From Gammaproteobacteria bacterium (GTDB lineage: Bacteria; Pseudomonadota; Gammaproteobacteria; CBDBNL01; JAAOII01), in NCBI GenBank assembly GCA_965207945.1, contig OZ242303.1, positions 1,408,935-1,472,934 of the forward strand: a stretch of DNA of 64,000 nucleotides, in the 5' to 3' direction. The notes below the pieces were generated by a model, which ran no database searches, was not told where the DNA came from, and saw only the letters and a list, made by a program, of their open reading frames with translations. Position numbers and translations under genes: made by a program. Below are positions 26,944 to 38,472 of the stretch, one piece after another (within the stretch, counting starts at the first letter, position 1; each line of letters begins with the position of its first letter).

Positions 26944-27693
26944 ATGAGTAGATTATTTCGTGTAAGACGAAGTTATACCCTGCGAGAAAGAGGGTTGAAA
27001 CAACAGCAACAAACAATTGCTGAAAAAGGTGTAAATATTATTATTCCTTATCAGGAGAAGGCAGTTGACTGGCTTAAGGTATTTGATATTAGGCAGGCAC
27101 CAGGGCTAATAAGCGTTGCGGAAGATAAAACCGATTGGAATTCAGCTATACAACCAGACGTAAGTCCTGCAAGGTTGGTGCTGGAAATTGGTTTTGGCAA
27201 AGGCGAGGTTTTAATTGATGAAGCGATTAAGAAACCTCGTGATTTATTTATAGGTGTTGATGTTTATAGCAGCGGCGTCTCTACTGTTTTGCGAGAGGTG
27301 GAAGCGCAAGACATTAAAAATATTTGCCTTATACAAGCCGATGCAGTGGATGTAGTCCCCGATATGTTTGCGGATAATATTCTGGATGAAGTCAAGATTT
27401 TATTCCCTGACCCCTGGCCTAAAAAACGCCATCATAAACGGAGAATGCTTAGATCTGATTTTATTAATGTCCTCGTCAAAAAGATGAAGGTGGACGGGAT
27501 CCTGCATGTAGCTACTGATTGGGATGAGTATGCCGAAGAAATTCTTGAGGTATTGGAAAGATGTCCTAAACTGAAAAATCTTTTTCCTGGCTATGCAGCT
27601 GGGAGGCAGTTAGATAGGATTGTCACTAATTTTGAGCAGAAGGCAATGAACAGCAGCAGGAATATCTACGAAATGCTATTCAAGAAGATATAA
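26944..27693 (+). CDS. trmB: tRNA (guanine46-N7)-methyltransferase
   Basis: SAM-binding LEIGFGKGE, FIGVDV and LFPDPWPKKRHHKRR, a hallmark TrmB segment. Confidence 0.88.
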   Translation: MSRLFRVRRSYTLRERGLKQQQQTIAEKGVNIIIPYQEKAVDWLKVFDIRQAPGLISVAEDKTDWNSAIQPDVSPARLVLEIGFGKGEVLIDEAIKKPRDLFIGVDVYSSGVSTVLREVEAQDIKNICLIQADAVDVVPDMFADNILDEVKILFPDPWPKKRHHKRRMLRSDFINVLVKKMKVDGILHVATDWDEYAEEILEVLERCPKLKNLFPGYAAGRQLDRIVTNFEQKAMNSSRNIYEMLFKKI

Positions 27694-27822: not shown

Positions 27823-29838
27823 CTAGTGAGTGAGCGAAGTAATCTTGCTGTAGATGTGTTTGGTTGTAAGCCCAAAATGCTCAAATAATTCACTAGCAGG
27901 CGCCGATTTGCCAAAGGAGTTAATCCCTATAATCTCGCCCTGCAACCCAACGTAACGATGCCAGTAATATGGCATTGCCGCTTCTACTGCTAGACGTTTG
28001 ACAACCTTTGGTGGCAAAACCTTGTCGCGATATTCAGGCGACTGGGCATCAAATACTTCACAACAAGGCATGGATACCAATCTTACTTGCTTGTTGCCTC
28101 CTTTTGTTAGGTCCTCTTTATTATGTTGTTCCACGGCTTGACGGGCTGCGCCTAATTCCGAACCAGTAGCAATAACTATAGCGGCTGGCTCAGAGCTATT
28201 TCCCTCCTCAACTAAAATATAGCCGCCTTTAGCAATATCATTAATTTGTGATTCATCACGCGATTGAAATTCAAGATTCTGACGCGATAGTATTAAAGCG
28301 CTCGGGGATTGTTTTTGCAATGACTCCGTCCAAGCAACCGCGCACTCAACAGTATCCGCTGGACGCCATACCTCAATGCCGGGAGTGGTGCGTAGCATTG
28401 TTAGATGTTCTATTGGTTGATGGGTAGGTCCATCCTCGCCCACGCCAATTGAGTCGTGGCTAAAAATAAATATAACCTTCTGGCGCATCAAAGCCGCCAA
28501 ACGCACTGCGCTACGTGAGTAATCCAGAAATACTAAAAAGGTGCCTCCATAAGGGATATATCCACCATGCAAGGCAATACCATTCATTATTGAGCTCATC
28601 GCTAACTCACGCACTCCATAATTAATATAGTTGCCAGGTTTGCCGTTATCAGTTATGGCAACAGATAAATCACCGAGTGTGCAGTTGGAGCCGCTAAGAT
28701 CTGCCGAGCCGCCGAGCAACTCAGGTAGTGCAGGCAGCAAGTTATTAATTGCTTGTAAGGATGCCTGGCGGCTAGCCACTGAGGCAGCTGATTTATGCTG
28801 ACTAACAATAAAGTCCTGCGCCTTGTTAGCAAAATCATGCGGCATTTGCCCGCTCAATCTTCTTGTATATTCTTTTGCTTTAGCGGGATGAGCAGCGCTA
28901 TACTTAGCGTAAATATCTTCCCATTGTTGCTGCGCCTTTTTGCCCTTGTCGCGCATATTCCATTCTTGATATATTTCGTCTGTAATCACAAATGGCTCGT
29001 GTTGCCAGTCAAGTTTACTACGCATAAGAGCAATTTCTTCATCGCCTAAGGGCGCGCCATGCGCTGCTGCCTTGTCCGCCTTATTCGGCGAACCATAACC
29101 TATATGCGTCTTGCAGATGATTAAGGATGGCTTATCGCTTTGCTGAGCAGAGGCAATCGCCTTTCTAATTTGCTCATGGTCATGTCCGTCTATGGGACCT
29201 AAGACCTCCCAATTATAAGCATCAAATCTTTTTGCCACATCATCGTGACACCAGCCACTAACCTCGCCATCTATGGAGATGCCGTTATCATCAAAAAAGC
29301 AAATTAGCTTGTTGAGTCGTTGAGTTCCTGCCAAAGAGCACGCCTCATGGGATAGACCTTCCATAAGACAACCATCGCCAGCAAATACATAAGTGAAGTG
29401 GGATACTATATTAAGTTCTGGGAGATTGAACTCTGCCGCAAGATTGCGCTCGGCAAGTGCCATGCCAACCGCGTTTGCCAAACCCTGCCCTAAAGGACCT
29501 GTGGTGGTTTCAACCCCTACTGTTTCTAATTCGGGATGGCCGGGAGTTTGTGAATTCATTTGGCGAAAGTTTTTAATCTCTTCCATGCTGAGGTCATAAC
29601 CACTAAGATGAAGCAAAGCATATTGCAGCATTGAACCATGCCCATTGGAAAGAATGAACCTGTCGCGGTTATGCCAGTTAGGGTCGGCGGGATTATGCGC
29701 TAGAAACTCACGCCATAAAACTGTGGCAATATCAGCCATCCCCATTGGCATGCCAGGATGTCCCGATGAGGCACGTTGGACCGCATCCGCAGCCAACACC
29801 CTTAGCGGGTGGGCAAGTGATAAATCAGAGTTTTTCAT
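27823..29838 (-). CDS. tkt: Transketolase
   Basis: 671-aa ORF with the ThDP motif GDGCLMEG, RQ..SGHPG and a transketolase C-domain. Confidence 0.92.
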   Translation of the reverse strand: MKNSDLSLAHPLRVLAADAVQRASSGHPGMPMGMADIATVLWREFLAHNPADPNWHNRDRFILSNGHGSMLQYALLHLSGYDLSMEEIKNFRQMNSQTPGHPELETVGVETTTGPLGQGLANAVGMALAERNLAAEFNLPELNIVSHFTYVFAGDGCLMEGLSHEACSLAGTQRLNKLICFFDDNGISIDGEVSGWCHDDVAKRFDAYNWEVLGPIDGHDHEQIRKAIASAQQSDKPSLIICKTHIGYGSPNKADKAAAHGAPLGDEEIALMRSKLDWQHEPFVITDEIYQEWNMRDKGKKAQQQWEDIYAKYSAAHPAKAKEYTRRLSGQMPHDFANKAQDFIVSQHKSAASVASRQASLQAINNLLPALPELLGGSADLSGSNCTLGDLSVAITDNGKPGNYINYGVRELAMSSIMNGIALHGGYIPYGGTFLVFLDYSRSAVRLAALMRQKVIFIFSHDSIGVGEDGPTHQPIEHLTMLRTTPGIEVWRPADTVECAVAWTESLQKQSPSALILSRQNLEFQSRDESQINDIAKGGYILVEEGNSSEPAAIVIATGSELGAARQAVEQHNKEDLTKGGNKQVRLVSMPCCEVFDAQSPEYRDKVLPPKVVKRLAVEAAMPYYWHRYVGLQGEIIGINSFGKSAPASELFEHFGLTTKHIYSKITSLTH

Positions 29839-31510
29839 TACAAGCCGAAATCAAAAATTGAGTTAATAAAGGAACAGGTCGTCCAGTAGCTCCTTTTCTT
29901 GCCCCCTCAAGCCAAGCGGTGCCTGCTATATCAAGATGAACCCAGGGGTATGCTTGAGCAAACTCTGCCAAAAAACCTGCGGCGGTTATAGTGCCTGCAG
30001 AACGATTGCCCACATTGGCGATGTCGGCGAAGTTACTTTTCATATCTTCCATATATGCTTTATCCATAGGCAAACGCCAAACTAAATCACGAGTTAGATT
30101 GGCAGCTTTTTCTACTTGGCGCGCCAACGCATCATCGTTGGCAAACATCCCACTTCTGAGATGTCCAAGGGCTACTACACAAGCCCCGGTTAATGTGGCT
30201 ATGTCTATAACACAACGTGGACTATATTTTTTAGCTACATAGGTTAAGGTGTCGCACAACACCAAACGTCCTTCCGCATCTGTATTGAGAACTTCCACCG
30301 ACTTACCAGACATTGTTGAGAGTATGTCGCCAGGACGATAGGACTTGGCATCCACCGAATTCTCAGCGCCCACTGCCATGCCTACAACATTAATTGGTAA
30401 CCCTAATTCTGCCAGTGCCTTCATTGTGCCAAACACCGAAGCGGCGCCGCACATGTCATATTTCATTTCGTCCATCTTACCCGAGGGCTTGATGCTGACA
30501 CCACCAGTATCAAAAGTCATCCCCTTGCCAACCAAAACCACAGGCGGGGTTGATGCTTTAGCTCCCTTGTATTCCATAATTACCAGCTGAGGAGGATAGG
30601 AACTCCCCTGAGTAACCGCCAGATAGGCATTCATCTTAAGCTGCTGTAGTTGCTTTTCACCAAGCACCTTGCATGAGATTTTTTTATACTGACGCGCCAA
30701 CTGCCTGCCTTGAGATGCTAGATGCGGCGGAGTGCAGTGGTTCGGAGGAGAATTGGCTAGGTCTTTTGCCAGCGCTATACCCTGGGCAATCCCTTGTAAT
30801 TGCTGTAATCTTGGTTTAATTAGCTCGGGTTGCGAATGTAAAATAGTTAGATTAGATGGCACAGGTGATGTGCTCTTCTTGGATTTAAAGTCATCATAAA
30901 TGTAGCTGGAAGCTGCAGCTGCCAAACAAATAGAGTCCAACACGGGCGAAGAATAATCTACGGAGTGTTTGGCTGCTGGCAACTTTGACTTGGAACTTGC
31001 TTGGCTAATAACGCGGCCACCTTTCTTAACCTCAATGCGCAGCCCAGAGAACTTTGCCATTGCCTTACTTATGCTGGCTTGCATTTTTGCGCTCATTTCA
31101 CTTGCTAGCTCCACCCCTTCACAACATATTTGCGCTTTATTCGCATGAGTTTGGCGTAGGGCAGTTTTAAGAGGAATAGCCAGCTTGCTAAGGGCTAGCT
31201 CGGATAACGGCTTGTCGCCGCAAGATATAGCTGTTAATTTATCTGAAAGATGCCACACTTCGCCAAATCTGTTCTTGTCGCTGCTTGCAATTTCATCAAG
31301 GGACTTGCGCGCCGCTGCGCTCAGCTGGTTATATAGCCAAGTCGGGCAAGCACTGGCGCTGGTGGTGGCGGTTTTGCTTTGCTTAGCGGTTTTGCTTTGC
31401 TTCTTGCTTAATTCGTTATGTTTTTCGCCACCCTGCTTAAGGATGATAATAGCCGCCTGGTCACCCTGCAACTTGGAGCTTGCTGATAATTTAATTGATT
31501 GCCTTGCCAT
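29825..31510 (-). CDS. pepA: Leucyl aminopeptidase (M17) with a Lys/Ser-rich ~50 aa N-terminal extension
   Basis: NTDAEGRL motif and a VGKGMTFDTGG catalytic domain. There is a SKKQSKTAKQSKT repeat at the N-terminus. Confidence 0.85.
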   Translation of the reverse strand: MARQSIKLSASSKLQGDQAAIIILKQGGEKHNELSKKQSKTAKQSKTATTSASACPTWLYNQLSAAARKSLDEIASSDKNRFGEVWHLSDKLTAISCGDKPLSELALSKLAIPLKTALRQTHANKAQICCEGVELASEMSAKMQASISKAMAKFSGLRIEVKKGGRVISQASSKSKLPAAKHSVDYSSPVLDSICLAAAASSYIYDDFKSKKSTSPVPSNLTILHSQPELIKPRLQQLQGIAQGIALAKDLANSPPNHCTPPHLASQGRQLARQYKKISCKVLGEKQLQQLKMNAYLAVTQGSSYPPQLVIMEYKGAKASTPPVVLVGKGMTFDTGGVSIKPSGKMDEMKYDMCGAASVFGTMKALAELGLPINVVGMAVGAENSVDAKSYRPGDILSTMSGKSVEVLNTDAEGRLVLCDTLTYVAKKYSPRCVIDIATLTGACVVALGHLRSGMFANDDALARQVEKAANLTRDLVWRLPMDKAYMEDMKSNFADIANVGNRSAGTITAAGFLAEFAQAYPWVHLDIAGTAWLEGARKGATGRPVPLLTQFLISACNEKL

Positions 31511-31764
31511 ATAATTTTTCTGCTAAAGAGATACTCTGTTGTTTTAACTTAACTATTGTAGGAGACGAGATATATTCCCGTATATTCTCCTATATATCCA
31601 TACATACCCTCCCCATGGCTTATCCCGTTAGGTGGAAGGTTTAATAATACCTCACCTATTTTTTTGACAAACTCACTATTGAAATTATAGGATAAAATAA
31701 ATCTTATTTGCTATTATTCCTTAAAAACTTATTAAAATAATTCAATGCAATATAATTCAATGCA

Positions 31765-32700
31765 ATGCTATATAGCGCGATAATAACCACCGTCTCATCT
31801 AAAGAAGAGAGCAATCAAGGACGCGCAAATTTTTTGAAAATGGCTTTGACTTCTGTGATGCAACAAACCTTGCCACCAACAGAGATTCTCATAGTTTATG
31901 ATTATCCTTATGGAGAGGGGATGGGAGTTGGGACGGGAGTGGGCGCACCAATTCCCAAGCATCCCGACAGCGGCAAGCCAATCAATATAACCACTCTGCC
32001 ATCTGAAGGACGTGGAATCAGTGCCTCACGCAATACAGGGATTAAGCATTCTTGTGAACCTTGGTTGGCTTTCCTGGACGATGATGATGAATGGCTACCA
32101 CGCAAGATGGAGAAGCAAGCCAAACTTATCAAGCATGAGACGCAACAAGGAATGAATTCTTTAATGAACCCCTTGATGAATCCTTTGATATGTCATGCGG
32201 ACGAAAAATGGCGACGCCATGGCGAGCATGTTAATCCACATCTAAAACATCGCAAGAGTGGTGGCAGAATTTATGAAAAATGTCTGGAGCTGTGCTGCAT
32301 ATCGCCCTCTACTGTCCTTATGCAACGCGAGGTGTTTGATAAATATGGATTATTTGATGAAAAGATGCCGGTGTGTGAAGATTATGATATGTGGCTGAGA
32401 ATTTGCGCTTATGAAGACGTGCTGTTTGTCCCTGAAAAATTGACGCTAAAAAGGGGCGGGCATGCCGACCAGCTATCACGCAAATATTGGGGCATGGACA
32501 GGTTTCGCTGTTATGCCTTGAAAAAGATGCTGCTACAATCCGAACTTACTGCTGATTATCGGCAGGCAACCAAAAATGCGTTGCAAAAACGGCTAGAAAT
32601 ATTATCTATTGGAGCGCGTAAACGTGACAAACAACAACACCTAAATTATTACCAAGAGCAAATCCAACAATTGCAAAAACAAGATGCCCAACCTACCTAG
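31765..32700 (+). CDS. Family-2 glycosyltransferase with low-complexity inserts
   Basis: GT-A fold N-terminus (ILIVYD...), a DxD motif LDDDDEW, and GMGVGTGVG and MNSLMNPLMNPL inserts. Confidence 0.65.
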   Translation: MLYSAIITTVSSKEESNQGRANFLKMALTSVMQQTLPPTEILIVYDYPYGEGMGVGTGVGAPIPKHPDSGKPINITTLPSEGRGISASRNTGIKHSCEPWLAFLDDDDEWLPRKMEKQAKLIKHETQQGMNSLMNPLMNPLICHADEKWRRHGEHVNPHLKHRKSGGRIYEKCLELCCISPSTVLMQREVFDKYGLFDEKMPVCEDYDMWLRICAYEDVLFVPEKLTLKRGGHADQLSRKYWGMDRFRCYALKKMLLQSELTADYRQATKNALQKRLEILSIGARKRDKQQHLNYYQEQIQQLQKQDAQPT

Positions 32701-33622
32701 CCCATCTAGCTCACTAATCCCAATTTGTTATGTTATAGCTCTGGCAGCTGAAGCCCGCCCGCTGCTTGACCGCTGGAAGTTCACCCAGTTGGAATCCACT
32801 CCCTTTCCTCTATACTACTGCGAACAACAAAATTACTTCTTAGTGGTAAGCGGCATGGGGAAGGTGCGCAGTGCTGCGGCTACTTCCTACTTAGCGAGTA
32901 AAGTCAATCCCTTGCGGGCTCAAGCGACACCACCCGCAATATGGATTAATTTTGGCACCTGCGGTCATCATAATTACCCGCTGGGGCAAGGGCTATTAGT
33001 TCATAAAATAATTGACATAAGCAACGGAAATAATTATTATCCGCTACGGCTACCCTACTCTGCATCTGCAACTATTGAATGCCATGCTACATCTCAACGC
33101 GAATACCCGCAGGAGGGGGATATCATAGATATGGAAAGCGCTGGCTTCTTCCCCACCGCCTGTTTGTTTAGCCCAAACGAACTGGTGCACTTGTATAAGG
33201 TGGTATCAGACAATGCTGATAATCTGCCTACAAAGCCGGCGTTAATGCAAAAAAGAATAATCCCTCTGCTAATGGAACGCATACCTGAGTTGCACATCAT
33301 AAGCGACAAGCTGCGCGCCATAGCAAGCAAAGAGTTTGATGAGGGGCACAAAATGGCGCAACAGATTGAAAAATGGCAACTTGATTTTACTGCTGCATGT
33401 CGTTGGACTACAACCCAAAGAATTCAATTGCAGGGACTGCTAAGAAAATGGTATGTTGTGTATTACGCTGTGGTTAGTGCGCGGACTTCTGCCCCAGCAA
33501 AGCAGCTAAAGCAATCAAAGCAGCCAAAATATAAGGCACCTTATGAAATATGTACGCAAGCAAAAGATGCCAAGCAGATGTTGCAAATATTACAAGATTT
33601 TATACAAAAAGTAAATGGTTGA
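32684..33622 (+). CDS. Purine-nucleoside-phosphorylase / MTA-SAH-nucleosidase-like protein with an extra ~120 aa C-terminal domain
   Basis: N-terminal 190 aa resemble the Pfs/MTAN fold (ICYVIALAAEARPL; VVSGMGKVRSAAATSYL matching SGIGKVNAA; WINFGTCGH). The C-terminus has no recognisable family. It overlaps the GT2 stop by 17 bp. Confidence 0.5.
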   Translation: MPNLPSPSSSLIPICYVIALAAEARPLLDRWKFTQLESTPFPLYYCEQQNYFLVVSGMGKVRSAAATSYLASKVNPLRAQATPPAIWINFGTCGHHNYPLGQGLLVHKIIDISNGNNYYPLRLPYSASATIECHATSQREYPQEGDIIDMESAGFFPTACLFSPNELVHLYKVVSDNADNLPTKPALMQKRIIPLLMERIPELHIISDKLRAIASKEFDEGHKMAQQIEKWQLDFTAACRWTTTQRIQLQGLLRKWYVVYYAVVSARTSAPAKQLKQSKQPKYKAPYEICTQAKDAKQMLQILQDFIQKVNG

Positions 33623-34697
33623 AAAGCAGATGAGTGAGGCACTGGCAATTAAGCCACACGGAGATAAACCTGAGCACGAGAATGTGTCCATGCCCGCCCG
33701 TCAGACCATATATCTTGAACAATCAGTGCGCCATCATCCACGCGCCGCCGCCATCATCAAAAGATTTAACAATCCTTGTGTTATTGAATGTGATAACTAT
33801 CGTGAAATATTCAATCCAAAACGCAATAACTTCCGTTTGCAAAAAAATCATCCCGCCCTGATAATTGCCCGCAAAGAGAACGACTGGGTGCAACCCAGCC
33901 CTTATGGTATAGGCGGCAAGCATAATTTTTACTTCTCACACATGCTGAACTGCATGTATGATTGCAGCTATTGCTTTTTACAGGCAATGTATTCATCGGC
34001 GCACTATGTAATTTTTATCAACTACGAGGACTTCTTCACCGCAATAGAAAAGCAGGTGCAACAAGTGCAACAGTTAAATGGAGGAGATGGAAAGAGTTTT
34101 TTCTTCTCTGGCTATGATTGTGATTCGCTTGCCTACGAGCCAACCAGTAAGTTTGTCGCTGAGGCACTACCCTTCTTTGCCAAACAGCCAAATGCTTGGC
34201 TGGAACTGCGCACTAAAAGCTTGCAAGTCAAAACTCTATTACAGCAAACAGCTATTCCCAATTGCATCGTGGCTTTTAGCATGGCGCCAGATGCAGTAGC
34301 CCGCCAATATGAAAAGGGCACACCGACACCAAGCAAAAGATTACTCGCAATGAAAAAATTGGCGCAACGCGACTGGAAGATTGGAGCACGTTTAGACCCA
34401 TTGATATGGCATGATAAATGGCAAGAATCCTACAGCGAACTAATAGAACAACTTGCCACCGCAGTCCCCAACAAAGCAATGCACTCCATAACCCTTGGTA
34501 CTCTAAGATTTCCGCGCAGCATGGCAGCAACAATGTCGCGCCACTACCCAACCGCGCCCTTTTTAGTAAATAAAATGATAACTACCGACTCCGCCCTACA
34601 GATGCAAAAGGCAGCCCATGATGAGATGATAGAATTCTGCCGCAGTCGCCTATCCCAAAACTACGACGACGCCAAAATCATCCCCAACGCAATATAA
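33615..34697 (+). CDS. Radical SAM enzyme of the spore-photoproduct-lyase-like family
   Basis: CMYDCSYCFLQ has CX3CX2C followed by the FLQ context typical of the SPL family. 360-aa ORF whose start overlaps the preceding gene by 8 bp. Confidence 0.6.
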   Translation: MVEKQMSEALAIKPHGDKPEHENVSMPARQTIYLEQSVRHHPRAAAIIKRFNNPCVIECDNYREIFNPKRNNFRLQKNHPALIIARKENDWVQPSPYGIGGKHNFYFSHMLNCMYDCSYCFLQAMYSSAHYVIFINYEDFFTAIEKQVQQVQQLNGGDGKSFFFSGYDCDSLAYEPTSKFVAEALPFFAKQPNAWLELRTKSLQVKTLLQQTAIPNCIVAFSMAPDAVARQYEKGTPTPSKRLLAMKKLAQRDWKIGARLDPLIWHDKWQESYSELIEQLATAVPNKAMHSITLGTLRFPRSMAATMSRHYPTAPFLVNKMITTDSALQMQKAAHDEMIEFCRSRLSQNYDDAKIIPNAI

Positions 34698-34701
34698 AGT
34701 T

Positions 34702-35115
34702 CTACTTCTTCTCTTCTGGCAAACTAGCAAACAGCTCGTGAATATTACCATCTGGGTCAGCAAAAAAAGCCGTTCTATGTCCCCATGGCATATCAGCTGG
34801 TTGTGCTACCTCTTTAGCTCCTTTAGCAAGTATTTCTTTATATGTCTCGTCCACTTGCGCTGGAGTATCAATAATAAAAGCTAATTCAAACGTCTGTCCC
34901 TTCTTTGGCTCATTGTAGCTGGGATGACGGGTAAACTCAGCCATGACTTTATTAGTGGAAATACCAAAACGTGTGCCAGGCATTTTAAACTCCACATAAT
35001 CACCCTCCATCTCAAAGATAACCTCAAGACCGATAACATCATGATAGAATGCTCTCATCTCAGCAAAATTGCTTGTGATGATTCCCACCATATCCATTTT
35101 TAAAGTTAATTTCAT
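34702..35115 (-). CDS. VOC/glyoxalase-family protein
   Basis: About 138 aa from the internal Met (MKLTLKMDMVGIITSNF...), with paired beta-alpha-beta-beta-beta modules and H/E metal ligands. Confidence 0.55.
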   Translation of the reverse strand: MKLTLKMDMVGIITSNFAEMRAFYHDVIGLEVIFEMEGDYVEFKMPGTRFGISTNKVMAEFTRHPSYNEPKKGQTFELAFIIDTPAQVDETYKEILAKGAKEVAQPADMPWGHRTAFFADPDGNIHELFASLPEEKK

Positions 35116-35248
35116 AATAAAAATTATAACATGGTGGTATAAGTGAGGGGGTATAGCTGGGAGGCATATACGAGTGCCTGAACTCGTCTGCAAAACAGAC
35201 GAAAGTGTTAAGCATTAAGTAAGTAAATAATTAGTATAATATACTATT

Positions 35249-35674
35249 ATGAAAATTCAATCTTATATTAACTTCAACGGCAATACCGAAGAAGCATTCA
35301 AGTACTACAAATCAATCTTTGGTGGAAACTTTAGTGAACTACAAAGATTTAAAGATATGCCTGGCTCAGAGAAAATGCCAAAGGAAGCCCTAAAGCAAAT
35401 TCTATATATATCACTACCAATCGGCGATGGCGTTTTAATGGGTAGCGATGCAATGGGTCATCCAGTTACCGCTGCCAATAACTTCTCCATAACTATTCAA
35501 CCAGACAGCAAAAAAGAAGCAAGTAGAATATTCAATGCTCTGGCAAAAGGAGGCAAAACCAAAAGACCATTAGGTGATATGAAGATGGAACCAGAAGGTT
35601 CTTTTTGGAGTTCCTACTTTGGTGTATGCACCGATAAGTACGACATAAACTGGATAGTTCGCTACGGAAATTAG
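35249..35674 (+). CDS. PhnB/YjdN-like glyoxalase-fold protein
   Basis: 141-aa ORF. Its N-terminus (INFNGNTEEAFKYYKSIFGG) is typical of the PhnB-like 3-demethylubiquinone-9 3-methyltransferase-domain family. Confidence 0.55.
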   Translation: MKIQSYINFNGNTEEAFKYYKSIFGGNFSELQRFKDMPGSEKMPKEALKQILYISLPIGDGVLMGSDAMGHPVTAANNFSITIQPDSKKEASRIFNALAKGGKTKRPLGDMKMEPEGSFWSSYFGVCTDKYDINWIVRYGN

Positions 35675-36834: not shown

Positions 36835-38472
36835 ATGTCTTTGAAGATATTGCAGGATTATAATCGCCTAATCCAGTCATCGCGAGTTTATGAAACTCTC
36901 AGCGAGACCCCTCTGCAACGAATAAACAACTTTTCCAAACGGTTCAATAAAGAGGTATATCTAAAGCGCGAGGATCTGCTGCCCATATTCTCTTTCAAAC
37001 TGCGCGGTGCCTATAATATGATTGCATCCTTACCTGTTAGCAAAACAAAAAATGGCATAATTGCCGCATCTGCTGGCAACCATGCGCAGGGAGTGGCAAT
37101 GTCAGCAGAGCAGCTTGGGATTAAGGCAACTATTGTAATGCCCGTCTCCACGCCCGAAACCAAAGTTAAGTCGGTGCGCTCGTATAAAGCGAACTTGATT
37201 CTTAAAGGTGATACTTTTGATGAAGCGTTTCAACACACCCAATCGCTTATCAAGGAAAATGGCTACACATATATACCACCCTTCAACGATCCACAAATCA
37301 TAGCTGGGCAGGGCACCATTGGAGCTGAGATAATCCGCCAACAGCAGCAACGCGTAGATGCGGTGTTTGTTCCGGTCGGCGGCGGCGGTCTAATAGCTGG
37401 CATAGGCGCATATATAAAGTATGTTAATCCAAAAGTTAAGATAATTGGGGTAGAGCCAGAGGATGCCGCCAGTATGACCATTGCCCTCAAGAACAAAAGA
37501 GTTACCACTTTGCCGCATGTTGGCATATTTGCCGATGGAGTAGCTGTTAATAGAGTTGGCAGCGAGTGCTTTAAGTTGGCGCGCCAGTGCATTGATGGGA
37601 TGATAACCGTAACTACGGATGAGATATGCGCCGCCACGAAGGATATTTTTGAAGATACTCGCGTTCTTGCCGAGCCAGCGGGCGCTGTCGCATTAGCTGG
37701 AGTGCGCAAATATTGTGAGAACGGTTCGGATTGGCGCGGGCTTGATGGGTTTAATGGACAGCAACGAAACAAAACTGGTGGCAGGGTTGGCAGCAAAGCA
37801 GCAAGCAAAAGCAACTCAGCTGCATCCTCGTCATCCACCGAGCATCTGGTAGCAATTCTTTCTGGCGCCAATACGGACTTTGACCGCTTGCGTCATATAG
37901 CCGAACGCACCGACATAGGTGAGCAACGAGAAGGGTTATTCGCGGTGACTATCCCTGAGAAGCCAGGAAGCTTTCGCCGTTTTTGCAGTTTACTGCACAA
38001 GTACAACATAACTGAATTTAACTATAGATATAGCCGCTCTGCTCAGGCACATATTTTTGTTGGAGTGCGGATTAAGAGTAGAAATGATATTGACCAGATA
38101 CTGGATAAACTACGCAAGATTAACTTTCCTGCTTATGATATGACATCCAACGAAATGGCTAAACTACATATTAGATATATGGTGGGAGGTATTCCCCCTA
38201 CTCCGCCTGAGAATGAGATTATCTTTAGGTTTGAGTTTCCTGAAAGACCAGGGGCTTTGCTACACTTTTTGCAGAAGCTTAACCCCAAGTGGAATATTTC
38301 TTTGTTTAACTATCGCAATCACGGAGCGGCTTATGGCAGAGTGCTGGCGGGAATGCAGGTGCCAGCAAATGAGAGGAATATGTTGTATAGGTACTTGAAG
38401 GATCTTGGCTTTACCTTTTATCCAGAGACGGATAATGAGGCATATAATATATTTTTGCGAAGTATAAGCTAG
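36835..38472 (+). CDS. ilvA: Biosynthetic threonine dehydratase with a Ser/Ala/Lys-rich insertion
   Basis: PLP lysine context (FSFKLRGAYN), a GGGGL loop and C-terminal ACT-like regulatory repeats. It has a ~30 aa low-complexity insert. Confidence 0.9.
   Translation: MSLKILQDYNRLIQSSRVYETLSETPLQRINNFSKRFNKEVYLKREDLLPIFSFKLRGAYNMIASLPVSKTKNGIIAASAGNHAQGVAMSAEQLGIKATIVMPVSTPETKVKSVRSYKANLILKGDTFDEAFQHTQSLIKENGYTYIPPFNDPQIIAGQGTIGAEIIRQQQQRVDAVFVPVGGGGLIAGIGAYIKYVNPKVKIIGVEPEDAASMTIALKNKRVTTLPHVGIFADGVAVNRVGSECFKLARQCIDGMITVTTDEICAATKDIFEDTRVLAEPAGAVALAGVRKYCENGSDWRGLDGFNGQQRNKTGGRVGSKAASKSNSAASSSSTEHLVAILSGANTDFDRLRHIAERTDIGEQREGLFAVTIPEKPGSFRRFCSLLHKYNITEFNYRYSRSAQAHIFVGVRIKSRNDIDQILDKLRKINFPAYDMTSNEMAKLHIRYMVGGIPPTPPENEIIFRFEFPERPGALLHFLQKLNPKWNISLFNYRNHGAAYGRVLAGMQVPANERNMLYRYLKDLGFTFYPETDNEAYNIFLRSIS

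Follow-up and report, generated by a model that had tools for sequence, protein, structure and literature searches.

Why would a bacterium that otherwise shows no sign of sporulation encode a relative of spore photoproduct lyase (SPL), and why is the gene for this radical S-adenosylmethionine (SAM) enzyme packed together with those for a nucleosidase and a glycosyltransferase? The question is raised by three overlapping open reading frames (ORFs) in a 64,000-nucleotide stretch of DNA, hereafter the window, from a genome labelled Gammaproteobacteria bacterium (assembly GCA_965207945.1, contig OZ242303.1, positions 1,408,935 to 1,472,934 of the forward strand). ORF1 encodes a family 2 glycosyltransferase (GT2), ORF2 an N-ribosyl hydrolase resembling 5'-methylthioadenosine/S-adenosylhomocysteine nucleosidase (MTAN) and extended by a helical C-terminal domain, and ORF3 a radical SAM enzyme of the SPL fold (Table 1). 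These three genes are the local version of a widespread module of four genes, the fourth of which encodes a short-chain dehydrogenase/reductase (SDR). In the reading that we prefer, at a probability slightly under 0.4, the nucleosidase would strip adenine from an adenosine-bearing intermediate, the SDR would carry out a reduction and the GT2 would glycosylate the product.

Three overlapping genes represent a widespread module

The first-pass annotation of the window had described three same-strand ORFs overlapping by 17 and 8 bp, had called them GT2, MTAN-like and SPL-like, and had listed the motifs SGMGKVRSAAA, FGTCGH and CMYDCSYCFLQ. Coordinates and junction sequences agree with the overlaps (17 bp between ORF1 and ORF2, 8 bp between ORF2 and ORF3), all three motifs are present, and the family calls were borne out by profile searches with PF00535 for ORF1 (49.3 bits, threshold 23.3), PF01048 (PNP_UDP_1) for ORF2 (23.7 bits, slightly under the cut-off of 25.1; several homologues carry a precomputed hit to this family) and PF20903 for ORF3 (92.3 bits, threshold 27). 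No housekeeping family emerged from these searches. Should ORF3 start at an alternative in-frame ATG at 33630, the 8-bp overlap would become a 7-nt gap, so that ORF2 and ORF3 are tightly packed with either start. The cassette is flanked by a divergent pepA gene and a convergent gene of the glyoxalase/vicinal oxygen chelate (VOC) family and is therefore a self-contained transcription unit; the three overlapping genes are a real operon.

The neighbourhood survey revealed co-conservation of these genes. Eighty metagenomic loci were gathered by the SPL-like family alone and scored with custom hidden Markov models (HMMs) for the four families, and the 44 of these loci with enough flank on both sides were used as the basis of companion counts. 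The SPL-like gene was accompanied by GT2 and nucleosidase genes in 13 of the 44, by GT2, nucleosidase and SDR genes in 12, by an SDR gene only in 17, by nucleosidase and SDR genes in one and by a nucleosidase gene only in one; it stood alone in none (0/44). Among the 48 loci whose upstream flank spanned 1.9 kb or more, 29 had a GT2 gene directly upstream of the nucleosidase gene, and all loci with a GT2 gene had the nucleosidase gene as well (29/29). The order and strand of the genes are fixed (GT2, nucleosidase, SPL-like, SDR). As this one-strand order recurs on contigs that are unrelated to one another, dozens in all, and Fusobacterium has two of the genes joined into one, their arrangement is not a chance juxtaposition. 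Three neighbourhoods picked for their divergence all displayed the GT2-nucleosidase-SPL-like series, two of them with an SDR gene directly downstream. No fifth conserved partner was found in an all-against-all clustering of neighbours, the other neighbours shared between loci reflecting lineage synteny. Thus, the functional unit proposed in the first-pass annotation stands, but it really consists of four genes, of which the one for the NADP-type SDR is missing at this lineage's locus: no SDR gene was found in the 64 kb of the window, nor in the sequence available for the compared loci L001 and L002.

With the SPL-like protein as query, 3,953 proteins were retrieved at E ≤ 0.001, true SPLs probably included, and the named hits among the best 120 all came from non-sporulating bacteria (Gammaproteobacteria, Legionellales, Thiotrichaceae, Myxococcales, Omnitrophica). 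The module was also seen in Myxococcales, in a metagenome-assembled genome (MAG) labelled Omnitrophica, in Petrotoga, in Fusobacterium and in human-gut contigs. Petrotoga and another MAG harbor the nucleosidase and SPL-like genes only, and the human-gut contigs carry either a nucleosidase-SPL-like-SDR series or an SDR gene, a small ORF and an SPL-like gene. Two loci of Candidatus Thiodiazotropha comprise genes for GT2, a nucleosidase that is short (~200 amino acids) and devoid of helical domain, SDR and TrmO; the ~5-7 kb of flank retrieved contained no SPL-like gene. Finally, locus L095 from a low-GC genome combines a short nucleosidase and an SDR with a 420-residue SPL-like protein of a sister clade, which has a CGFDCSYC motif and scored 134 bits with the family HMM; the same cluster further encodes a MOSC protein and a CDP-alcohol phosphatidyltransferase resembling PssA. 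All pairwise sub-clusters were thus seen, as expected for the steps of one pathway. Two contigs labelled 'Bacteriophage sp.' that carry the module are unverified, unannotated fecal scaffolds encoding bacterial-type genes. In keeping with the earlier impression that the three-gene combination is not a described pathway, no account of the module was found in open-access text and no curated family corresponded to it.

The strongest evidence that the nucleosidase and the SPL-like enzyme act together is a Rosetta-stone fusion, which substantiates the dedicated functional pair suggested in the first-pass annotation. In Fusobacterium vincentii (NZ_CP084075.1, a 2.1-Mb chromosome filed as a plasmid), a single 623-residue ORF consists of a nucleosidase (29% identical to ORF2, E = 1e-15), a linker made of helices that corresponds to the helical domain of ORF2, and an SPL-like enzyme (28% identical to ORF3 across 318 residues, E = 2e-50), and an SDR gene lies 3' of it. 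The identical architecture in F. animalis, F. polymorphum and F. canifelinum indicates that the fusion has been kept across the genus. Its representative WP_008802597.1 stands for a 90%-identity cluster of 1,355 members annotated 'spore photoproduct lyase', a label which, throughout Fusobacterium, is a probable systematic misannotation.

ORF3 has the fold of spore photoproduct lyase and lacks its defining residues

The AlphaFold model of ORF3 (predicted local distance difference test [pLDDT] score of 89.5) was matched by Foldseek to the Geobacillus SPL structures 4fhc/4fhf with template-modelling (TM) scores of 0.77-0.82 over ~347 columns (E ~1e-20); the next-best matches had TM scores of at most 0.45 (0.37 for MqnE). 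ORF3 has retained the full SPL fold, including an alpha/beta domain at the N-terminus. It shares with spore photoproduct (SP) lyase (SplB; TIGR04070; PDB 4FHC/4FHD) the PF20903 domain, the CX3CX2C cluster motif with the equivalent of Tyr96, and residues K201, S222 and R298, which align with the SAM-contact residues Lys174, Ser195 and Arg273, but identity between the two is only ~17-25%. The genomic context differs too: the module comes without a splA partner, its hosts are non-sporulating, and a nucleosidase gene, an SDR gene or both invariably accompany the SPL-like gene. ORF3 scored 95.2 bits against the SPL equivalog model TIGR04070 (cut-off 400) and 65.8 bits against TIGR03886 (cut-off 437.55), and with the family HMM module members scored 290-540 bits, compared to 104 for Bacillus SplB and 84 for a TIGR03886-type protein.

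The first-pass annotation had named the fourth cysteine and the hydrogen-atom-donor Tyr/Cys of SPL as the residues to look for. Cys140, the conserved hydrogen-atom donor of SPL, aligns with a tyrosine (Tyr167) that is invariant in the ORF3 family; the nearby Cys169 of ORF3 is Gly, Ser or Thr in other members, and no Cys occurs in the ORF3 alignments at the alternative, S76-equivalent position. Tyr98, which belongs to the radical-return chain of SPL, is replaced by Phe121 in ORF3 and by Phe in all 40 proteobacterial-type sequences, and is still Tyr in the Petrotoga, Fusobacterium and gut members. The beta-hairpin, proposed to flip the lesion in SPL and among the features that define SP lyases (PMC3467042), is 8 residues shorter in ORF3 than in Bacillus SplB and devoid of the Arg304/Tyr305 tip and of Lys309, the model displaying only a short 3+4-residue hairpin at residues 321-330. 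Since the radical-return and hydrogen-donor residues are lost and the hairpin is shortened, ORF3 is predicted to be an SPL-fold paralogue with a chemistry other than SP repair. What the first-pass annotation had said of the SPL family thus stands for the fold and the PF20903 match, but the protein is not a spore photoproduct lyase found out of context, the catalytic and DNA-flipping features that define that enzyme being gone.

Other assignments of ORF3 were considered and rejected. A true SP lyase is contradicted by the score under the equivalog cut-off, the missing Cys140, the Phe at the position of Tyr98 in this lineage and the short hairpin. Membership among the TIGR03886-type 'SPL family' proteins was dismissed as well, these forming a different clade of which the Aureimonas example is solitary and scores 84 bits, against at least 290 for module members. 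Neither a SPASM domain nor a convincing small ORF within the window locus was found, which disfavors a system for ribosomally synthesized and post-translationally modified peptides; the cross-locus census covered ORFs of at least 70 residues.

ORF2 joins an MTAN-like nucleosidase core to a conserved helical domain

AlphaFold and Foldseek confirmed the division of ORF2 into an MTAN-like domain and an extra C-terminal domain, estimated at ~120 residues in the first-pass annotation and measuring ~125 in the model (pLDDT 88.4), which displays an alpha/beta core. The top 50 PDB matches of this model were all MTAN or MqnB enzymes, the best E value (2e-11) being that of Arabidopsis thaliana MTAN, with the Glu12Gln and Asp197Asn mutant structures of the Escherichia coli enzyme also among them. 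Across 40 nucleosidase sequences no variation was seen at E23, M150-E151 and D176, and S175 is kept in at least 90% of them; in a profile alignment with Streptococcus pneumoniae MTAN (1zos), E23, M150-E151 and S175-D176 align with Glu12, Met173-Glu174 and Ser196-Asp197. The nucleosidase hence looks catalytically competent and purine-directed.

ORF2 thus shares with Pfs/MtnN both the fold and the catalytic Glu/Met-Glu/Ser-Asp constellation, but differs in that it has lost ~30 residues around the adenine-stacking GDSF loop, a deletion shared with short MqnB-type enzymes, that a helical C-terminal domain of ~100-125 residues is added, and that it is coupled genomically to a radical SAM enzyme, also as a fusion. 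The deletion brings the core of ORF2 to the size of Chlamydia CT263 (TM scores of 0.69-0.75 normalized by the target, Foldseek), making CT263/MqnB its best match in size and fold. Scores against the MTA/SAH nucleosidase model NF004079 and the futalosine hydrolase model TIGR03664 were 13.9 bits (cut-off 169) and 16.8 bits (cut-off 124.7), respectively.

The C-terminal domain is made of helices at residues 185-197, 200-238, 243-268 and 296-311 (pLDDT mostly above 85) and carries a conserved motif, H/R-[WF]-T-x-x-Q-x-x-Q-L-x-x-L-L. An exhaustive profile search yielded 6,290 nucleosidase representatives at E ≤ 1e-3 and 2,390 at E ≤ 1e-30, for a family of at least 2,390 50%-identity clusters, and the best 150 representatives all align end-to-end, helical domain included. 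A ~8-bit match relates this domain to the N-terminal extension of the L095 SPL-like protein, the locus nucleosidase of which is short. The helical domain therefore appears to travel with the radical SAM enzyme.

A distinct glycosyltransferase and a probable reductase complete the module

The orthologues of ORF1 make up a distinct and tight GT2 subfamily with ~60 invariant columns in the family alignment, including the motifs LD(S/D)DDEW, CEDYD and KYGGHxDQLSxxYWGMDRFR. ORF1 itself reached no NCBIfam equivalog cut-off, and a weak match to TIGR04283 (28 bits) was confined to a local stretch. It keeps the DXD motif (LDDDDEW) and the ED motif (CEDYD); its first nucleotide-binding motif is degenerate, reading IVYDYPYGEG where VVDDGSTD is usual, and a PLMNPLMNPL repeat has been inserted in a lineage-specific manner. 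The donor-binding site may thus have changed or decayed in this small-genome lineage. The GT2 relative from locus L002 has a likewise aberrant N-terminus.

The SDR has the invariant Arg after beta-2 of NADP-type enzymes and an intact N-S-Y-K tetrad and is, on the strength of these features, probably a reductase. Its subfamily is generic, with no equivalog match.

A proposed pathway through an adenosylated intermediate

MTAN-type enzymes cleave adenine from 5'-substituted adenosines, and next to a radical SAM enzyme such chemistry leaves two candidates for the substrate, the by-product 5'-deoxyadenosine and a 5'-C-adenosylated product. From the gene unit and its conservation, the fusion, the folds, the catalytic residues and the lost SPL features, we infer a pathway whose order of steps, substrates and preference for adenosylation over hydrogen abstraction would be as follows. 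The radical SAM enzyme would cleave SAM reductively and the 5'-deoxyadenosyl radical would end up in an adenine-bearing pathway intermediate, the likeliest route being that the 5'-deoxyadenosyl unit is added, through a C-C bond, to an acceptor's sp2 carbon. The dedicated MTAN-like hydrolase would next take off adenine, exposing the ribose hemiacetal; the SDR, where present, would reduce the exposed carbonyl to yield a polyol; and the GT2 would glycosylate the product.

This interpretation is favored because the GT2 gene co-occurs strictly with the nucleosidase gene and not with the radical SAM gene, because GT2-nucleosidase-SDR operons persist where no radical SAM gene is adjacent, because all pairwise sub-clusters occur, and because the four enzyme classes reproduce the sequence of hopanoid side-chain synthesis, MqnE/MqnB obeying the same logic. 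The first two of these observations (29/29 loci for the co-occurrence) also argue that the nucleosidase is an enzyme of the pathway rather than an accessory of the radical SAM enzyme.

In the hopanoid system, HpnH attaches adenosine and HpnG splits off the adenine; the GT2 is HpnI, and there is a redox step to which no enzyme has been assigned (PMC4263297). One cluster thereby brings together a radical SAM enzyme, an adenine-releasing hydrolase of the MTAN family and a GT2 with a reductive step in between, and provides a chemical rationale covering all four module genes. It differs from the module in that HpnH belongs to another radical SAM subfamily and in that module hosts include Fusobacterium and gut anaerobes. 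No Hpn model was among the NCBIfam matches of the three window proteins at E ≤ 0.1, and no squalene-hopene cyclase or isoprenoid gene was found near the module in the window or among cross-locus neighbours. In the futalosine pathway, similarly, the radical SAM enzyme MqnE makes a 5'-C-adenosylated product from which a short MTAN-fold hydrolase, MqnB, takes off the purine, and CT263 is a 6-amino-6-deoxyfutalosine hydrolase acting on such an adenosylated product. That pathway, however, has no counterpart of the helical domain, GT2 or SDR of the module, MqnE is structurally remote, and no mqn gene was found among the conserved module neighbours. Outright membership in the hopanoid, futalosine or arsenosugar pathways was rejected, no model having reached its cut-off. 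By analogy, the module would work most like HpnH/G/I or MqnE/B, but its radical SAM enzyme has another fold and it possesses an additional helical domain.

Several points weigh against this pathway. We know of no SPL-fold enzyme that adenosylates its substrate, and SPL itself abstracts hydrogen. HpnH and MqnE belong to unrelated radical SAM subfamilies (TM score of 0.37 between MqnE and the ORF3 model). The SPL fold has an N-terminal domain and an open barrel and is designed to take large substrates, for example nucleic acids. No conserved candidate acceptor or acceptor-biosynthesis gene came out of the cross-locus clustering of neighbours. Seventeen of the 44 loci pair SPL-like and SDR genes without a nucleosidase, implying that reduction may be linked to the radical SAM step without local removal of adenine, in which case a housekeeping MTAN would substitute or the order of steps would differ; and the window's own lineage has no SDR locally. 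Finally, the tRNA-modification or DNA-metabolism genes adjoining the module in several lineages are a hint of a link to nucleic acids, which would not be expected from the lipid and quinone precedents.

More tentatively still, and with some doubt on our part, the SPL-fold enzyme may have been repurposed from C-C cleavage to a C-C-forming 5'-deoxyadenosylation. The module would then be a third and very widespread 'adenosylate, deadeninate, reduce, glycosylate' pathway, after those of hopanoids and futalosine, at work in bacteria from Fusobacterium to marine Gammaproteobacteria. It would equip an acceptor, perhaps a membrane lipid or a base in a nucleic acid, with a glycosylated five-carbon polyol derived from SAM.

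Alternative roles for the module

The first-pass annotation had suggested a simpler role for the nucleosidase, the clearance of inhibitory 5'-deoxyadenosine. In such a scheme the SPL-like enzyme would abstract hydrogen and use SAM stoichiometrically, the MTAN-like enzyme would only hydrolyse the by-product, and the true substrate or product would be handled by GT2 and SDR without involvement of the nucleosidase. This role is possible and accounts well for the two enzymes being fused or adjacent, for the intact MTAN catalytic residues and for the missing hydrogen-return and SAM-regenerating residues of SPL (Cys140, and Tyr98 in this lineage), whose loss fits SAM being a co-substrate with 5'-deoxyadenosine released at each turnover. 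It is not the best fit, however, since GT2 tracks the nucleosidase in 29/29 loci and stays with nucleosidase and SDR in operons that have no radical SAM gene nearby, and since 17 of 44 loci have a radical SAM gene without a nucleosidase; the conserved helical domain, the GT2 and the SDR are likewise left unexplained. Most radical SAM families manage with a housekeeping MTAN, and Fusobacterium is a known producer of autoinducer-2, implying that Pfs is present. On balance, we consider simple by-product clearance less likely than the adenosylated intermediate, but a serious rival to it.

Action on nucleic acids is less probable again. Here, the SPL-like enzyme would act on DNA or tRNA, either on a lesion other than SP or in a hypermodification, and nucleosidase, SDR and GT2 would elaborate or recycle the adduct. 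The conservation of the full SPL fold with its N-terminal domain (TM ~0.8) and of the Lys174, Ser195 and Arg273 equivalents would suit such a role, as would the tRNA-modification genes adjacent to the module in several lineages (L009, L096, L002 and the window) and the DNA-metabolism genes nearby in Fusobacterium and on one gut contig. These associations are anecdotal and lineage-specific, however, none having passed the cross-locus clustering, and the recurrence of tRNA-modification neighbours may reflect either a tRNA substrate or chance. Moreover, the hairpin to which lesion flipping is attributed (PMC3467042) is 8 residues shorter and lacks Arg304, Tyr305 and Lys309, the occurrence of the module in strict gut anaerobes speaks against the repair of ultraviolet damage, and the isoelectric points of the family are unremarkable and uninformative as a hint of binding. 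A nucleic-acid substrate could also be combined with the adenosylation model.

Marginally weaker is the salvage or breakdown of modified purine nucleosides after the fashion of QueK/QueL, in which the nucleosidase would free a modified base, the SPL-like enzyme would act as a radical lyase on a C-C or C-N substituent and the SDR would reduce the fragment: queuosine salvage is indeed built around such a pair, a dedicated nucleoside hydrolase and a radical SAM lyase (PMC11130926, PMC11570991), SPL chemistry is itself a bond cleavage, and gut anaerobes, Fusobacterium and small-genome Gammaproteobacteria, in which the module is common, have lifestyles that favor salvage, but cross-locus clustering revealed no conserved transporter (including for queuosine), tRNA-guanine transglycosylase (TGT) or other salvage gene nearby, family classification sets QueK (an inosine-uridine nucleoside hydrolase, IUNH; IPR023186) apart from the MTAN fold and files QueL under IPR006638 and not under SPL, the established MTAN mechanism, which protonates the purine N7, would make 7-deazapurines such as queuosine unlikely substrates, and a biosynthetic GT2 would have no role. 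Membership in queuosine salvage proper was rejected, an SPL-like nature of QueL not being supported by the available sources. Neither anti-phage defence (no PADLOC match for any of the three proteins) nor a phage origin (a trivial glycosyltransferase match only in PHROGs) was retained.

Genomic surroundings

The closest relatives are MAGs labelled Gammaproteobacteria with chromosomes of 1-2 Mb, which have the transketolase-pepA-cassette synteny in common; scanning genome contigs with the single, fast-evolving nucleosidase sequence returned one close relative. A gap of 254 bp separates pepA from the GT2 gene of the window and contains a candidate sigma-70-like promoter, which is weak evidence as it consists of a consensus match only and such sites number 15 in the region, against 9.8 expected.

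Other features of the window and of the compared loci were noted in passing. In the PepA leucyl aminopeptidase, the N-terminal region is rich in Lys and Ser and of unusual length. After the glyoxalase/VOC gene, within 34702-35674, comes a PhnB-like gene (PF06983, + strand) that also occurs near the module in L002, lineage synteny being the probable cause. Further downstream, a threonine dehydratase (IlvA, 36835-38472) contains a low-complexity, Ser/Ala-rich insertion, GGRVGSKAASKSNSAASSSS. In the gammaproteobacterial locus L003, a 509-residue protein of the adenosine deaminase family, which recalls aminofutalosine deaminase, is encoded directly downstream of the SDR gene; it was not among the neighbour families common to other loci. 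On gut contig L093, a gene pair that, to the eye, resembles 'DNA modification/repair radical SAM + partner' adjoins the module.

Table 1. Positions of the module genes, their domains and neighbouring genes in the window and in the compared loci (L-numbers)
Feature	Sequence	Positions	Strand	Remarks
TrmB gene	window	26944-27693		4 kb upstream of module
pepA	window	29825-31510	-	upstream neighbour, divergent from cassette
Candidate sigma-70-like promoter	window	31664-31693	+	TTGACA-18-TAGGAT, 10/12 matches
ORF1, GT2	window	31765-32700	+	311 aa
ORF2, MTAN-like N-ribosyl hydrolase with helical C-terminal domain	window	32684-33622	+	312 aa
Nucleosidase core of ORF2	window	32723-33214	+	residues 14-177, AlphaFold model
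Helical C-terminal domain of ORF2	window	33236-33616	+	~125 aa, residues 185-311, AlphaFold model
ORF3, SPL-fold radical SAM enzyme	window	33615-34697	+	360 aa
CX3CX2C [4Fe-4S]/SAM motif of ORF3	window	33951-33974	+	CMYDCSYC (C113, C117, C120), then F121
Glyoxalase/VOC-family gene	window	34702-35193	-	downstream neighbour, convergent with cassette
TrhO-like gene and TrmB gene	L002	7374-8887		directly downstream of module
Adenosine-deaminase-family gene	L003	7689-9218		directly downstream of SDR gene
MnmE gene	L007	898-2256		5 kb upstream, Petrotoga
GT2, short nucleosidase, SDR and TrmO genes	L009	6165-9025		Thiodiazotropha
TrmO gene	L009	8309-9025		translationally coupled, overlaps SDR stop by 4 bp
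GT2, short nucleosidase, SDR and TrmO genes	L096	2239-5233		Thiodiazotropha
TrmO gene	L096	4526-5233		translationally coupled, overlaps SDR stop by 4 bp
YjbR-family gene	L090	4355-5023		upstream, Fusobacterium
Nucleosidase/SPL-like fusion gene	L090	5098-6969		F. vincentii
Uracil-DNA glycosylase (UDG)-superfamily gene	L090	8687-9283		downstream, Fusobacterium
Putative DNA modification/repair gene pair (by eye)	L093	2226-4324		adjoins module, gut contig
Short nucleosidase, SDR and sister-clade SPL-like genes	L095	5001-8697		low-GC genome

Implications

Members of this family are labelled 'spore photoproduct lyase' or 'DNA photolyase' in thousands of genomes whose bacteria never form spores, those of the medically important Fusobacterium nucleatum group among them, and in non-sporulating bacteria this annotation is very probably wrong. 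The module represents a large, uncharacterised and probably mis-annotated family. Given its size, its strong conservation (45-50% identity across phyla) and its retention in genomes of 1-2 Mb, its product likely matters physiologically. The fusion of the nucleosidase with the radical SAM enzyme offers a clean handle on the pathway intermediate and so on the substrate; in the hopanoid system, hpnG mutants accumulate adenosylhopane. Should the adenosylation reading be true, a rare radical SAM chemistry would be extended to a new fold, and a new glycoconjugate, lipid or nucleic-acid modification may emerge.

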